28,926 bases of DNA from an uncultured archaeon. GTDB taxonomy: Archaea; Hadarchaeota; Hadarchaeia; Hadarchaeales; Hadarchaeaceae. Shown one piece after another: positions 14,094-27,321 of the stretch (its first letter is position 1; every line of letters begins with the position of its first letter). The DNA lies in NCBI GenBank assembly GCA_937921735.1, contig CAKZTQ010000017.1, forward strand, positions 1-28,926. Reading direction: 5' to 3'. A program made the position numbers and the translations under genes. The notes below the pieces were generated by a model, which saw nothing but the letters and a program-made list of their open reading frames with translations, did no database searches and was not told where the DNA came from.

Positions 14094-14300
14094 ATGCGCG
14101 CGAAGGGCCCCAAGTGCCGGCTTTGTGGGAAGGCGATCCCCCTCATGAGCTACGACGCCGCCTACCTAAAGCTCGTGAGGCCGGGCGAGGCGAAAGCTAT
14201 CTTCATATGTTGGAAGTGCGCCGAGAAGAGGTTGGGAAACAAACTCGGGGAATTGACCGGTAGCTCGGCGGGGAGCGAGCGAGGTGTTGGCGATGGGTAA
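14094..14300 (+). CDS. Small C4 zinc-finger protein
   Basis: CRLC...CWKC; TATATAT 24 nt upstream (leaderless geometry); stop overlaps the start region of the next gene. Confidence 0.65.
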   Translation: MRAKGPKCRLCGKAIPLMSYDAAYLKLVRPGEAKAIFICWKCAEKRLGNKLGELTGSSAGSERGVGDG

Positions 14301-15372
14301 GGCCACGCCCGAGGACCACGCGCTCATGACGTTGGCGATAAAGCGGCGTGGTAAATTCGTGGACTTGGCGCACATTCAAGAAAAGCTCGCGCGCGACGCC
14401 GGCAGGGGGTTCTCCGAGGCGGAAACGCGGGAGCTCCTTAACTCCCTGATCGAAAGGGGTTTGGTCGAGGAGAAGGCCGGCGAGTATGCCATCACCGACG
14501 AGGGGCGAAAATATTTTGACCGCAGATGGAGGGAGGTCAGGGAGGAGCTCAACCAAGACTATCTAAAGGTCTACAGGGCCAAGCAGTACTACCCGCACGT
14601 CGCGGACGCCCTGCTGGAGTTCTGCAAGGATCGCTACGTCTCGGTCTTCAGGCTATTCACCGGGCGAGCTTGGCTGCAGAGAAAGCTCGGGCCGAGGTAC
14701 ATCACCATAAGGAGCGAGCGCGACATCCAGAGGTGGCTCGATGTCCACGGCATAGACTTCATCCCGTACATTCATCGCATCGGCGAGGACCGGCCGGATT
14801 GGCTCGTCATAGACTTCGACGCTGGAAGACGGGTCGAGATAGAGCAAACGAAGAAGGTGGTGAAGGAGGCCTACCAGGTGCTAAGCAGCCACGGCGTGGA
14901 GCCCGCGATCAAGTTCTCGGGCTCGAGGGGTTTTCAGATATGGGCGCAGTTTGAGCCCCACGAACTCCCCCGCGACTACAAGCCCAAGGAGCTCAAGGGG
15001 GGCAAGCGCGAGCGCAACATGTTCAGCTTCTACGCGGACATCGTGCGATTCGTCGAGGCGAGGATCGCGGAGGAGTTGCCGGGCCTGACCACGGCGGAGA
15101 CCGCGAGGAAGGAGGAGCGCACGGACAAAGTCCTGCTCGACGCTTCCATCATCAAGCCCATGGGCGATGTGCGGGCGCCCTACAGCATGCACTACAAGAC
15201 GGGGCTGATATCCATGCCCCTTGAGCTCGGGGAGCTGGCGCGCTTCGAGCCGGAGCAGGCGGATCCGGAGCTGGTGATCGAGCGTTACGACAAGAGGGGC
15301 AATGAGTTCTCGCTCGAACCCACGAGTGGCGAGGAGCTCTTCGAAGCCGTGGTCGAGTGGTGCAAGGGTTAA
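14293..15372 (+). CDS. Archaeo-eukaryotic primase-polymerase (LigD PolDom-like) with N-terminal winged-helix domain
   Basis: AEP motifs: PDWLVIDFD (DxD), KFSGSRGFQI, VLLD...RAPYS...TGL.SMPL; N-terminal LL.SL.ERGLV......Y.ITD.GR wHTH wing; SD GAGGTG before ATG 14293. Confidence 0.85.
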   Translation: MGKATPEDHALMTLAIKRRGKFVDLAHIQEKLARDAGRGFSEAETRELLNSLIERGLVEEKAGEYAITDEGRKYFDRRWREVREELNQDYLKVYRAKQYYPHVADALLEFCKDRYVSVFRLFTGRAWLQRKLGPRYITIRSERDIQRWLDVHGIDFIPYIHRIGEDRPDWLVIDFDAGRRVEIEQTKKVVKEAYQVLSSHGVEPAIKFSGSRGFQIWAQFEPHELPRDYKPKELKGGKRERNMFSFYADIVRFVEARIAEELPGLTTAETARKEERTDKVLLDASIIKPMGDVRAPYSMHYKTGLISMPLELGELARFEPEQADPELVIERYDKRGNEFSLEPTSGEELFEAVVEWCKG

Positions 15373-22113: not shown

Positions 22114-22443
22114 ATGATGGGGAACATCCATTACCAAACGCTGGAAGCGGTCGAGCCCGAGGAGCTCGAGATCCTTAGGCGATTGAAGGAGGACTACAAC
22201 AGCGGGTGCAGGTCCAGCAGGGAGCGCATCAAGCTTTGGCGGAAGGGCGACATTTTGATCTGCATGGAGCCCCCGGAGGCCAGATGGGGCTTCAGCTGGG
22301 CTGGAGACGGCGGCAAGGGGCGCGTGCTCGAGGCGCTGCTGAGGATGTCGGCTGCCACCCCTAGGCTGACCTGGGTGATCTTCGACGAGGACCGGCGCGC
22401 TGAGATCGCGATTCGGGGCGGTAGGCCGGTCAGCGTGGCTTAA
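22114..22443 (+). CDS. Hypothetical protein (109 aa)
   Basis: Host-like codon usage, TATA at leaderless distance, fills the gap before the Cas2-like gene; no family recognised. Confidence 0.7.
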   Translation: MMGNIHYQTLEAVEPEELEILRRLKEDYNSGCRSSRERIKLWRKGDILICMEPPEARWGFSWAGDGGKGRVLEALLRMSAATPRLTWVIFDEDRRAEIAIRGGRPVSVA

Positions 22444-22455
22444 GCGGGGACATCG

Positions 22456-22701
22456 ATGGCTTACCTGCTCATTTACGATCTAGACGGCAGGAGCCGAGCG
22501 AGACGGAGGCTTTTCAGGTATCTGAAAAGAAACGCCGAGCTTGTACAGCACTCGGTGTGGAGGTTCAGCGATCTCACCGCGCTGCGGCGGGCTGCGGGGT
22601 TGGTGATGACCGCACGTGGCAAGGTCTTGGCCTTCTCGGAGGACGACCGCATCCTTCTCGCGCCGACGGAAGTGAAGCGATTTTTGTCGAGCCTTAAATA
22701 G
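22456..22701 (+). CDS. Orphan Cas2/VapD-like ferredoxin-fold protein
   Basis: 81 aa; YLLIYDL (Asp8), R.RRRL.RYLK helix and VQHSVW match the Cas2 YDI...R..K..K.L...VQ.SVF pattern; no cas1 or array in the window. Confidence 0.75.
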   Translation: MAYLLIYDLDGRSRARRRLFRYLKRNAELVQHSVWRFSDLTALRRAAGLVMTARGKVLAFSEDDRILLAPTEVKRFLSSLK

Positions 22702-22708
22702 GGTGATA

Positions 22709-22923
22709 TGTCCTATTTAGGACACGAGCAACGCGATTACAGCTGATGTCCTATTTGGGTCATTCGCCATGGTGAGACTTGACCCTCCGATTACGGAACT
22801 AACTCAGGCATCCAAAAAGACCGAAATCATTTGGTTCAAAAACGGCGAAATATGTATCTTGCCGCAAAAATACTTCGCGACTGAGGTGATGTCTCAAATA
22901 GGACATGTGTCCTAAATAGGACA
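22709..22923. repeat. Four 16-bp imperfect palindromic boxes in inverted pairs around an AT-rich core
   Basis: TGTCCTATTTAGGACA 22709-22724; TGTCCTATTTGGGTCA 22747-22762; TGTCTCAAATAGGACA 22890-22905; TGTCCTAAATAGGACA 22908-22923 (exact reverse complement of the first). Confidence 0.9.
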
Positions 22924-22970
22924 AAGCGAAGAACGAACCTAAAATTTGGCGGGTGTGGACTTTGAACGCG

Positions 22971-24374
22971 ATGCCCATGGAGATCGCCGAGTACGCCGTC
23001 GAACTCGCGATGAGGCTCGGCGCACGCTACGCCGACGTCAGGCTAGAACGCTCTAGCGCGGAAGACATCGTCGTCAAGGACGGAGCCGTCGAGAGCGTGA
23101 GGTTCGGGAAAGAAAGTGGCTTGGGCATCCGAGTCCTCGCTGGCGCTTGGGGTTTTGCGTCCACCAACGAGTTGACGAAATCAGCCGTCGGGGATGCCGT
23201 TAGGGCGGCCATGGGCATGGCGAGGGCGACGAGAGATCATGGGGAGGTAAAGCTCGCGGAGATCGAGGCCTGCGAGGCCCGCTCACGGGCCGTCGGGAAG
23301 AGGGACCCATTCGAGGTTGAGTTGGGCGAGAAGATCGAACTCTGCTTGGAGGCGGATGAAAGGGCCCGCGCGGTTGAGCACGTGAAGCGAACCTCGACCG
23401 CGATCTCCTGCGAGCGCGTCGAGAAGGTCCTCGTGAGCAGCGAGGGCGCGAGGATAGAATCCGAGAGCGTGCGCACGTACGCCGAGGTCTTCGCGCTTGC
23501 CAAGCGAGGAGAGGTAACGGAGTACGTGGACGACCTCGCCGGCGGCACGGGGGGCTTCGAGATAGTGGAGGGGTTCGACATGCCCGCTCGAGCCGAGGAG
23601 GTGGGCAGGCGGGCGTCGACGCTAGCGGGGGCGAGGACCTTGCCGCGGCAGAAGTTGCCCGTGGTGCTCGACCAAGACTTCGTCGCCCTGCTCGTCCACG
23701 AGATAATCGGCCACCCGAGCGAGGCCGACCGGGTGCTCGGGAGGGAGGCGGCGTGGGCGGGCAAGGCGTGGTGGGCCGGAAAGCTAGGCGAGAGAGTGGG
23801 CTCGAGGCAACTCAACGCGGTCGACGACCCACGGGTTGAGGGGGCACTTGGATACTTCGAGTACGACGACGAGGGTACCCCGGCCAAGCGGAAACAATTG
23901 ATACGCAACGGGGTGCTGCTCGAACACATGCACAGCAGGGAGACCGCCGCCGCGTTTGGGGTGGAGCCCAACGGCGGCATGCGCGCCCAGAGCTTCAGGT
24001 ACCTCCCCCTCATCCGCATGAGCAACACCTTCATCGAGCCGGGTGACTTCAAGCGCGAGGAGCTGTTTGAAATCCCTCGAGGGGTGTACTTAAAGGGGGC
24101 CAAGATCCCGAGCATAGATTCAAGGCGCTACGATTTCCAAATAAGCGCTAAGGAGGCCTTCCTCATCGAACGCGGCGAGCTGGTGGGACCCTTCCGCGAC
24201 GCCTCGCTGGTCGGGGTGGCGCCGGAGTTCTTTCGGAGCATCGACGCGGTGGCGGATGACCTCGAGATGAGGCCGATACCGAATTGCGGCAAGGGCGATC
24301 CCATGCAGACCTTGCACGTGGGCAACGGCGGGCCCCACCTGCGGGGCAGGGGGTTGATAGCGGGGGCGAGATGA
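22971..24374 (+). CDS. tldD: TldD family metalloprotease
   Basis: YADVR, G.GIRVL.GAWGFAST, HEIIGHPSEADR, YDDEG, RMSNTFIEPG, CGKG.P.Q. Confidence 0.94.
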   Translation: MPMEIAEYAVELAMRLGARYADVRLERSSAEDIVVKDGAVESVRFGKESGLGIRVLAGAWGFASTNELTKSAVGDAVRAAMGMARATRDHGEVKLAEIEACEARSRAVGKRDPFEVELGEKIELCLEADERARAVEHVKRTSTAISCERVEKVLVSSEGARIESESVRTYAEVFALAKRGEVTEYVDDLAGGTGGFEIVEGFDMPARAEEVGRRASTLAGARTLPRQKLPVVLDQDFVALLVHEIIGHPSEADRVLGREAAWAGKAWWAGKLGERVGSRQLNAVDDPRVEGALGYFEYDDEGTPAKRKQLIRNGVLLEHMHSRETAAAFGVEPNGGMRAQSFRYLPLIRMSNTFIEPGDFKREELFEIPRGVYLKGAKIPSIDSRRYDFQISAKEAFLIERGELVGPFRDASLVGVAPEFFRSIDAVADDLEMRPIPNCGKGDPMQTLHVGNGGPHLRGRGLIAGAR

Positions 24375-27049: not shown

Positions 27050-27142
27050 GGGCCCGTGGCCTAGCCAGGATAGGGCGACGGCCTTCGGTGCTGAGGCGGG
27101 GAAAGCCGTAGGTCGGGGGTTCGAATCCCCCCGGGCCCGCCA
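27050..27142 (+). tRNA. tRNA-Arg(TCG) with a 15-nt intron at 37/38 (27089-27103); CCA encoded
   Basis: Acceptor GGGCCCG/CGGGCCC, anticodon stem ACGGC/GCCGT, TCG at 27085-27087, GTTCGAATC T-loop, bulge-helix-bulge can be drawn. Confidence 0.93.
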
Positions 27143-27246: not shown

Positions 27247-27321
27247 GGGCCGGTGGTCCAGTCAGGACAGGACGCAGGCCTCCGGAGCCTGAGATCGCGG
27301 GTTCGAATCCCGCCCGGCCCG
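27247..27321 (+). tRNA. tRNA-Arg(CCG), no intron, CCA not encoded
   Basis: Acceptor GGGCCGG/CCGGCCC, anticodon stem CAGGC/GCCTG, CCG at 27282-27284, GTTCGAATC T-loop. Confidence 0.95.

Follow-up and report, generated by a model that had tools for sequence, protein, structure and literature searches.

Contig CAKZTQ010000017.1 of an uncultured archaeon of the family Hadarchaeaceae (assembly GCA_937921735.1) was analyzed at its full length of 28,926 nucleotides (hereafter, the window). It carries a 215-bp element in which four 16-bp palindromes, here called boxes, lie directly behind a gene for an 81-aa Cas2-like protein. Genes of this family and boxes occur together, vary together type by type, keep a fixed geometry, and are present or absent jointly. 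From the sequences we infer physical binding, a dimer, a helix (alpha1) acting as reader, and an effect on transcription. The interpretation that we favor, and that we regard as moderately probable, is that the boxes are operator arrays of an autoregulated, sequence-specific DNA-binding protein derived from Cas2. Summed over all readings, it appears highly likely that the Cas2-like protein itself, and not another factor, acts on the boxes.

Co-occurrence and co-variation of gene and boxes

The genome to which the window belongs, G000 (C17 is the window contig; other G labels denote genomes of relatives, and C labels denote contigs), is a Hadesarchaeal assembly of 1.06 Mb in 60 contigs, 83% complete. 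The consensus box of the window, T1, is TGTCCTAWWTAGGACA (16 bp). A profile of the Cas2-like family detects members in 27 of the 66 genomes of the phylum, with 1-3 copies each, some interrupted by stops. Thirty-eight family places were found; three had no locus, and 35 were examined for palindromes of the pattern TGWC-N8-GWCA within 500 bp upstream and 600 bp downstream. Such palindromes lie beside 28 of the 35 members, or 28 of 33 when two weak matches inside long open reading frames (ORFs) are set aside; the seven members without boxes include these two and one at a contig end. A possibility raised by an earlier, sequence-only reading of the window, that boxes are lacking beside orthologous Cas2-like genes, turned out to be false: boxes flank the orthologues.

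The inner eight bases of the box vary by lineage and by paralogue, and gene-specific box types number at least 10 (Table 1). Paralogues within one genome carry their own type each: in G000, the C17 gene has T1 and the C32 gene has TGACAYACGTRTGTCA, and the same is seen in G003 and G023. T1 and TGACAYACGTRTGTCA are the two most frequent and over-represented near-palindromic 16-mers of G000. A third over-represented palindrome, CGTTAAGCGCTTAACA, was discarded as it belongs to an unrelated repeat of ~130 bp, found in four copies near mobile-element-like genes (G000:C9:2844, 18033, 22767 and C12:2549). In G026, two box types stand side by side at C54:3026-3057 and C51:772-823 (TGTCTTACCTAAGACA adjoining TGTCTCATATGAGACA); different paralogues may share target spacers there.

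Five genomes that lack the family were also checked. Occurrences of the pattern were at control level in four of them (27 against 27 in G009, 30 against 40 in G010, 31 against 28 in G022 and 9 against 17 in G025, pattern against control), and no repeated palindromes were found in these four. The count in G018 was 31 against 12.

Co-variation reaches the level of single residues. Residue 17, which follows the invariant R16 at the start of the basic helix, and box position 3 agree in 26 of 26 members: all 20 members with TGTC boxes have R, K or Q, and all six with TGA[CT] boxes have L. Shared ancestry alone does not explain the match because the TGTCACAC clade (R or Q) is nested in the L clade with support 92/93. 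Independent switches of residue 17 are few, two or three.

A natural exchange is found in G052. The product of its p109 gene, the 109-aa partner that adjoins the Cas2-like gene, is 89.7-92.5% identical to those of the congeners G047, G050 and G051. The Cas2-like protein of G052, in turn, is 72.6% identical to that of G013, a member of another genus, and 56.6-59.3% identical to those of its congeners. Boxes of the G013 type number 10 at 6 loci in G052 versus 1-2 in the congeners; T1 boxes closer than 2 mismatches are absent from G052, and the congeners have 4-9 T1 boxes. In the orthologous Trm5 spacer, G050 has five boxes of type T1 and G052 has three of the G013 type, and a second orthologous spacer behaves alike. 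Hence, the box type follows the Cas2-like gene, and neither p109 nor the locus; p109 is not the specificity determinant because it is unchanged in a genome where the boxes are of another type. Decay is also joint: the G007 protein has lost conserved arginines (R21H, R25C, R44L, R49C), its flanking boxes are degenerate, and no consensus box is left in the G007 genome, which is 94% complete. The earlier proposal, in which the boxes are sites where a dimeric protein binds DNA and this protein is connected with the Cas2-like gene, receives strong support from co-occurrence and co-variation.

One might suppose that a separate, hidden regulator owns the boxes, and that the Cas2-like gene is merely the most constant member of its regulon. 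In its favor, the Cas2-like protein has no recognized DNA-binding domain, and boxes elsewhere in the genome precede promoters, as operators ordinarily do. However, one hidden regulator would be needed for each of the at least 10 types, each co-inherited with one Cas2-like paralogue. G052 changed only a box-to-box cassette, yet all the boxes of its genome changed. The residue 17 match (26/26) and the control level of boxes in 4/5 family-free genomes point in the same direction, and we consider a hidden regulator quite improbable.

The same observations admit a second explanation, in which gene and sites form a selfish cassette: a Cas2-like nuclease or recombination factor would act on its own palindromes, which would form the ends of a minute mobile cassette, and would propagate or convert solo boxes around the chromosome without their being retained for regulation, in the manner of repetitive extragenic palindromes (REPs) and their associated tyrosine transposases (RAYTs). 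In REP/RAYT systems, a gene is flanked by its own palindromes, one palindrome family goes with each gene family, and the copies are scattered through extragenic DNA, frequently in clusters, and are missing without the gene. Here, too, the gene is flanked by its own palindromes, and family-specific types are dispersed outside genes and missing where the gene is missing. Further features suggest cassette behavior. G003 has two copies of a 340-bp unit with 98.8% identity, and this identity begins and stops exactly at the outer boxes, with no visible target duplication; the replacement in G052 runs box-to-box beside an unchanged p109. In genus g7, the p109-Cas2-like module is found either at the PrimPol-Ldh_2 locus or at the Trm5 locus, the other locus having boxes only. 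The family is patchily distributed and has pseudogenes among its members, perfect copies are numerous among the boxes, some arrays are flanked by convergent genes, and Asp8, the catalytic-type residue of Cas2, is nearly invariant.

Other traits do not fit a selfish cassette. Only box repeats of 16-18 bp recur; the array spacers are unrelated, and there is neither a MITE-like unit (miniature inverted-repeat transposable element) nor a target duplication. Nor is there a transposase, integrase or HUH domain. Asp8 is replaced by Asn in G012:C40, whose array is intact. The same orthologous spacers hold arrays across species, and across genera at Ldh_2, which is more in keeping with selection at those loci than with random spread. 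Five genomes of two genera (G004, G047, G048, G050, G051) have a T1 box 37-80 bp upstream of Ldh_2, boxes are found by the radical-SAM/GcvH spacer in five genomes of three genera (G008, G012, G048, G050, G051), and both genomes of the genus of G000 carry boxes in the ndk-aIF5B spacer. RAYTs are HUH/Y1 transposases of at least ~150 aa that act on single-strand hairpins. In contrast, we find an 81-aa Cas2 homologue with no HUH/Y1 (IS200/IS605-like) transposase, only 16-bp palindromes, no compensatory stem changes within a genome, and arrays that sit in conserved orthologous spacers.

The element of the window also bears on this matter. The sequence-only reading had mentioned MITE or integrase ends and had seen no target-site duplication; indeed, no direct repeat flanks the 215-bp unit. 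A MITE or insertion sequence of 215 bp was rejected, as no second copy of that unit exists and recurrence is limited to the 16-bp boxes. What survives of the idea is that, in relatives, gene and boxes together behave as a box-bounded cassette. Contigs of a relative with ~91% identity span the whole stretch with the same gene order, the same array length and small spacer indels, and neither joints nor an empty site of the element were found in them, which speaks against a selfish cassette. Altogether, a selfish cassette seems unlikely, and so does its specific formulation as a Cas2 homologue that recognizes, seeds, converts and maintains its own palindromic repeats as a box-bounded cassette, independently of Cas1.

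Box geometry and the element of the window

Two classes of upstream box were found. In class 1, the box of 13 of 19 loci begins at -25 to -28 relative to the ATG; its end is separated from the start codon by 10 nt, and a GGTGAT motif comes after it. In class 2, at 4-5 loci, the box spans the start codon (CGT ATG TCA). Both classes place a box over the gene's own promoter or start, as in an autoregulated factor. The 3' box encodes the last codons and the stop, which reads TGT CCT AAA TAG in T1, TCA AAC GTT TGA in the G013 type and CAC CTG TGA in the TGTCACAC type; for this reason, the C-terminal residues vary with the box type. In many members, the tail of the protein (VSNRT...RPK, for instance) comes from translation of the array's first boxes, the ORF running into its own sites (e.g., L061 1730-1775 in G047; homologues P0003-P0027).

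A geometry of this kind might also reflect RNA control. Boxes in the gene's own transcript would form hairpins with a 6-bp stem and a 4-nt loop, and the Cas2-like protein would bind or cut them and thereby autoregulate translation or stability. Cas2 and VapD, the nearest solved relatives, are known as ribonucleases. The class-2 box contains the start codon, the class-1 box lies just 5' of the Shine-Dalgarno-like GGTGAT, the 3' box contains the stop codon, the array would be located in the 3' untranslated region, and the strand orientation of arrays is uniform. Dispersed boxes, however, lie outside the mRNA of the neighboring gene, upstream of TATA-like elements (C15, C16, C19, C32 and Ldh_2 loci), their orientation relative to the downstream gene varies (aIF5B versus Ldh_2 and tldD), and frequent variants, TGTCTCAAATAGGACA among them, disrupt two stem pairs with no compensating change. 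Rfam yielded no match in or near the element of the window, either at the gathering threshold or at E ≤1. The long RNA fold of the element (z -6.4) is produced by the inverted boxes by construction. We deem RNA control very unlikely.

The element of the window, whose features are collected in Table 1, is confirmed as described by the sequence-only reading. T1 has exactly four matches in the window at ≤3 mismatches (shuffled mean 0.07; 0/100 shuffles reach four). Boxes 1 and 2 are opposed to boxes 3 and 4, as shown by their centers, which establishes the 2+2 inversion. The 17-nt arms at the outer edges (22709-22725 and 22907-22923) form a perfect inverted repeat with 100% complementarity, and box 1 starts 7 nt past the stop codon of the Cas2-like gene (22699-22701). 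The enclosed spacer is AT-rich as reported, with a GC content of 0.449 versus 0.600 for the contig. Each box is a pseudo-palindrome only, as its center is always AA or TT, and degenerate copies always suffer their loss in the same half (TGTCnnAAATAGGACA). In relatives, the position of the decayed fifth box is occupied by an intact one that encodes the C-terminus and stop (TGT CCT AAA TAG). The box upstream of the gene has decayed to a half-site in the window, where the Cas2-like gene begins 12 nt after p109.

No further copy exists in the window, as previously noted. Genome-wide, though, 13 T1 boxes (≤2 mismatches) are present at five intergenic loci of G000, with a reversed-pattern control of 0. 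The suspicion that the motif is dispersed before unrelated genes is partly borne out by these five loci; dispersal, however, accompanies the link with the gene and does not replace it. At C15, C16, C19 and the window, the box nearest to the gene lies ~15-35 bp upstream of a TATA-like element, read by eye. The same order of box and TATA is seen at C32, where the second paralogue has one TGACAYACGTRTGTCA-type box upstream and seven downstream; more arrays of this type are found at C4, C16:14411-14583 and C45. G000 has at least nine arrays of two kinds. The C32 paralogue (C32:2783-3281; L031 1446-1944) looks defective, with ATG changed to ACG in the box, a frameshift, and a GGKALILEK... C-terminus out of frame.

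Table 1. Features of the window, T1 loci of G000, and box types with the genomes or loci that carry them.
Feature	Location	Strand	Description
Box 1	22709-22724		TGTCCTATTTAGGACA, perfect T1, center ATTT
Box 2	22747-22762		TGTCCTATTTGGGTCA, 2 mismatches, center ATTT
Box 3	22890-22905		TGTCTCAAATAGGACA, 2 mismatches, center AAAT; hybrid half-site form, recurs in relatives
Box 4	22908-22923		TGTCCTAAATAGGACA, perfect T1, center AAAT
Decayed fifth box	22687-22702	+	AGCCTTAAATAGGGTG; 10/16 consensus positions; overlaps last Cas2-like codons and stop
Spacer between box pairs	22763-22889		127 bp, AT-richer
TATA-like element	22938-22947	+	CCTAAAATTT; 14 nt past box 4; ~24-33 nt before in-frame ATG at 22971; by eye
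Cas2-like gene, proposed box binder	22456..22701	+	81 aa; Arg-rich helix alpha1, residues 14-26
p109, partner gene	22114..22443	+	109 aa; no known family; directly upstream of Cas2-like gene
tldD-family metallopeptidase gene	22953..24374	+	PmbA_TldD domains 1-3, E down to 6e-52
T1 locus	C17		window element, before tldD
T1 locus	C16:6945-7328		between MJ1316-domain gene and KTI12-like P-loop kinase gene
T1 locus	C15:17202-17244		between ndk and aIF5B
T1 locus	C11:117144-117251		between NfeD and XPD-like helicase
T1 locus	C19:11787-11819		between UbiX and 430-aa ORF
Box type	G000 and several genera		TGTCCTAWWTAGGACA (T1)
Box type	G006		TGTCTTATTTACGACA
Box type	G003		TGTCTTAGGTAAGACA
Box type	G013, G052		TGTCAAACGTTTGACA
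Box type	G026, G040		TGTCTCAWWTGAGACA
Box type	G012:C39, G003:C44 and C10		TGTCACACCTGTGACA
Box type	G023:C16		TGTCCCATATGGGACA
Box type	G000:C32, G004:C24		TGACAYACGTRTGTCA
Box type	G016:C4		TGATACACGTGTKTCA
Box type	G023:C2		TGACAAAGGTTTGTCA
Box type	G013:C18, G011:C9		TGACAYAGCTRTGTCA

Orientation was compared among T1 arrays, setting aside three boxes with other centers. In 18 of 19 arrays, all AAAT/ATTT-centered boxes point one way, and the only mixed array is that of the window; the inverted 2+2 layout is therefore peculiar to G000. The home arrays of nine relatives are not inverted, and the 127-bp spacer is not conserved as a feature, the arrays of relatives being spaced otherwise. Neither the inverted layout nor the AT-richer 127 bp is a defining feature of the system.

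These traits bear on a role in chromosome mechanics, in which the boxes would be a polar fork barrier, a centromere or an iteron-type origin, the 2+2 layout acting as a fork trap or unwinding region. Arrays are polar in 18 of 19 cases, with the sole mixed array next to the gene in the window, and the enclosed 127 bp are AT-richer. Two known systems offer parallels. A small dimeric binder beside its own sites, non-essential and lineage-restricted, calls to mind rtp of Bacillus subtilis with TerI/TerII, and 16-bp palindromes spaced ~38-43 bp directly behind the gene resemble sopC of plasmid F. The replication terminator protein (RTP) of B. subtilis is a small dimer of narrow distribution, non-essential, whose gene lies beside an inverted pair of sites and which has further polar intergenic sites. 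RTP, however, is a winged-helix protein and Ter sites are single or paired; here, the fold differs and arrays have up to 8 boxes. Also against a mechanical role are the at least nine arrays of two kinds in 1.06 Mb, the up to three paralogous systems per genome, the lack of a ParA-like or Orc1-like neighbor at the loci seen, a pair of opposed boxes 1.5 kb apart in G004:C33, and the non-inverted home arrays of the nine relatives. GC skew, which the sequence-only reading had proposed to compare, was examined around the five T1 loci; on these short contigs, it follows the gene strand with no turning point and is uninformative. In our judgment, a role in chromosome mechanics has a slim chance, the slimmest among the alternatives considered.

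Two specific forms of this idea are not supported. An origin-like locus had been suggested previously; besides the number of arrays (at least nine of two kinds in ~1 Mb), no orc1/cdc6 gene adjoins, G000 (83% complete) has no Cdc6_C match, TIGR02928 gives partial matches only, located elsewhere, and the spacer by the best Orc1-like N-terminal fragment, at the end of contig C31, contains no boxes. As for a centromere-like site, also suggested, no nucleoside triphosphatase (NTPase) partner was seen, several paralogous systems coexist in a genome, and the distribution is patchy. A ParB/parS or SegAB centromere likewise lacks support, as no Walker-type ATPase adjoins at the loci examined, the whole genome being unscreened for ParA/SegA; in the window, the neighbors are p109 (no family), a metallo-beta-lactamase (MBL)/beta-CASP hydrolase and TldD. 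The system is absent from 39 of the 66 genomes, and it is therefore neither the origin nor the centromere of the chromosome.

Still another proposal was that of a looping operator for tldD. It holds in part. The element CCTAAAATTT is probably the tldD promoter element, the TATA assignment having been made by eye, and a second TldD/PmbA gene also lies downstream of the element. The array, however, follows the Cas2-like gene whatever lies downstream: tldD occupies this place only in G000, Ldh_2 or a convergent Trm5 does so in relatives, the array stands between convergent genes in G014 and G012, and the 2+2 layout is found only in G000.

The Cas2-like protein as candidate reader of the boxes

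The 81-aa protein matches the Cas2 profile PF09827 with E 5.4e-5 and 23.7 bits, 0.1 bit below the cut-off of 23.8, and 18 of 20 family members match the profile at E ≤0.01. Against the Protein Data Bank, the family profile finds archaeal Cas2 proteins best (SSO8090 and SSO1404, E 4e-4 to 5e-4), the solved archaeal Cas2 structures ranging to 9e-4. An AlphaFold2 (AF2) model, with a mean predicted local distance difference test (pLDDT) of 87.2, has the topology b1-a1-b2-b3-a2-b4-a3. The best Foldseek matches of the model are Cas2 and VapD with probability 0.97-0.99 but E of only ~8e-3, and Cas1-Cas2 complex entries are among the matches; in a wide structural search, Cas2 entries reach Z 5.5-6.2 among many generic ferredoxin folds. 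The profile match, together with a ferredoxin-like b1-a1-b2-b3-a2-b4 fold with an Asp after b1, agrees with membership in the Cas2 superfamily. Additional traits shared with Cas2 and VapD are the length of ~80 aa and a QxSVW motif in b2. Asp8, the catalytic-type residue, is nearly invariant, but Asn in the G012:C40 member mentioned above. Pfam matches of the family are confined to Cas2 and the Cas2-like domain PaaX_M, with no HUH/Y1 transposase or integrase domain.

The family is a small, separate clade: 107 representatives were found at E ≤1e-3 and 58 at ≤1e-10, among 1.84 billion. All 12 loci of the class-1 branch are in Hadesarchaeal metagenome-assembled genomes (185,579 species genomes were searched with the class-1 alignment), and close homologues of both small proteins are named Hadesarchaea or Hadarchaeum. 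One clade record (L120, from the contig that is also G004:C15) bears the title Hodarchaeaceae, the name of an Asgard family, which is probably a labelling slip. Members are annotated in the sources as Cas2 or as hypothetical protein. Dimers of canonical Cas2 are arranged along duplex DNA within complexes with Cas1. Unlike them, the family described here is tied to sequence-specific 16-bp palindromes, a trait not known for Cas2.

A Cas2 that functions in CRISPR adaptation was considered and rejected: no cas1 gene or CRISPR array adjoins, and the repeats are 16 bp long with an irregular spacing of 2-143 bp. There is no cas gene near the locus of the window, the sole Cas1 match of G000 is on contig C7, and many genomes that bear the family have no Cas1 match (e.g., G004, G006, G008, G014, G026). 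No link of the family with Cas1 was found, and its annotation by pipelines as CRISPR-associated Cas2 is probably wrong as to function.

The mechanism that we favor, an autoregulated DNA-binding protein, might work as follows:

(i). The 215-bp element would be the home array of recognition sites of the adjoining 81-aa protein. With its Cas2-type ferredoxin-like fold, and probably as a dimer as in Cas2, the protein would bind the 16-bp box as double-stranded DNA.

(ii). Two Arg-rich alpha1 helices would read the two half-sites, one helical turn apart. Residues conserved in the family would read the outer TGTC/GACA, and lineage-specific residues the inner eight bases.

(iii). Where a box spans the start codon or is found 10 nt ahead of it, the bound protein might block the initiation of transcription or translation, thus regulating its own synthesis. 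Because the same boxes are found tens of bp upstream of the TATA boxes of a few other genes, the protein would be a small accessory regulator. The dispersed boxes lie upstream of TATA-like elements, not within leaders.

(iv). In the window, the upstream operator would have decayed, and the Cas2-like gene is probably co-transcribed with p109. Boxes 3 and 4, located 14 nt upstream of the probable TATA, probably modulate the tldD-pmbA promoter.

Several observations weigh against this mechanism. All conclusions derive from metagenome-assembled genomes and from inference. The family has no helix-turn-helix (HTH) or ribbon-helix-helix (RHH) domain according to Pfam, fold searches beyond Cas2 and VapD give generic ferredoxin-like matches only, and we know of no Cas2-fold protein that reads DNA sequence. 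The family is patchy (27/66 genomes) and includes pseudogenes, and ~25 TGACAYACGTRTGTCA boxes persist at C4, C16, C32 and C45 despite the defective C32 paralogue. The targets are functionally unrelated, and the Ldh_2 and Trm5 spacers of G000 itself contain no box. Arrays between convergent genes, where no promoter is expected, occur at G000:C16:14411-14583 and as home arrays in G014 and G012. Dense arrays hold as many as 8 boxes, with perfect copies common among them, an arrangement that is not usual in a regulon, and the uniform orientation of arrays (18/19) is left unexplained by a symmetric dimer.

Precedents for proteins of this sort can be found among small centromere binders and among repressors. 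The omega protein of pSM19035, ParR (parC), ParG, SopB (sopC) and archaeal SegB are proteins of ~70-120 aa encoded beside arrays of the repeats that they bind. In systems of this kind, there is an operator at the protein's own promoter, a few further promoters are preceded by the repeats, and the specificity of the protein varies along with its sites. They differ from the Cas2-like protein in having a ribbon-helix-helix or HTH fold and a ParA/ParM-type NTPase, with which they act on plasmids or chromosomes; here, the fold is Cas2-like and no NTPase neighbor was seen. In addition, several paralogous systems are found per small chromosome, and one box contains a stop codon. As to repressors, PaaX reads DNA by an N-terminal winged helix, not by its Cas2-like part. 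The likeness lies in that part: PaaX has a Cas2-like central domain (PF20803) within a transcription regulator, PaaX_M is matched by 3 of 20 family members (best E 1.9e-4), and the PaaX structure 8a39 is among the fold matches (Z 5.5). The protein studied here is, in contrast, the Cas2-like domain alone. For archaeal SegB, see PMC8682754.

Neighboring genes and significance

A p109 homologue adjoins at 15 of 19 class-1 loci. The AF2 model of p109 (pLDDT 92.7) shows a ferredoxin/ACT-like fold. The protein belongs to no Pfam family, fold searches give only generic ferredoxin, ACT or dimeric alpha+beta matches (top Z 8.3), and the lead to an immunity family of contact-dependent inhibition (CDI) is weak (0.82). 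Prediction of a complex between p109 and the Cas2-like protein had a score of 0.02. The predicted start of p109 overlaps by 14 nt (22114-22127) the start of a divergent 503-aa MBL/beta-CASP gene; one of the two starts has probably been called too far upstream.

The window also contains, at 14293-15369 (+), a 359-aa gene product with a winged helix and a LigD-type primase-polymerase (PrimPol). Although a winged-HTH PrimPol adjoins or is near many class-1 loci in relatives, it was discarded as a functional partner of the module: PrimPol is single-copy, 60-80% conserved and present in 51 of the 66 genomes, including ones without the Cas2-like family, and the linkage was read as old synteny with a near-universal core gene. 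Two tRNA genes are found at 27050-27139 and 27247-27321 (+); the first, of 90 nt, may hold an intron.

In literature listings and abstracts, we came across no account of a Cas2-like protein that binds DNA site-specifically, nor of the boxes. An earlier account of the gene and site system did not turn up there either, and the closest precedent for a Cas2-like fold in a regulator is PaaX with its central domain.

If binding is confirmed, the Cas2 fold would have to be counted among the few minimal modules that read DNA sequence, and this in an uncultured archaeal phylum whose regulation is hardly understood. At least 10 pairs of protein and box, a single candidate residue for specificity, and one natural exchange of cassettes by which all the sites of a genome were rewired would then make up a natural specificity panel, usable for binding assays and for learning how a regulator and its sites change together. 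For the evolution of CRISPR, the finding is of a Cas2 relative tied to palindromic repeats without Cas1. Should the repeat-propagating alternative be true instead, the system would be a living analogue of the way in which a Cas2-like protein might have come together with palindromic repeats before CRISPR adaptation modules existed, and an archaeal counterpart of REP/RAYT built on another enzyme.

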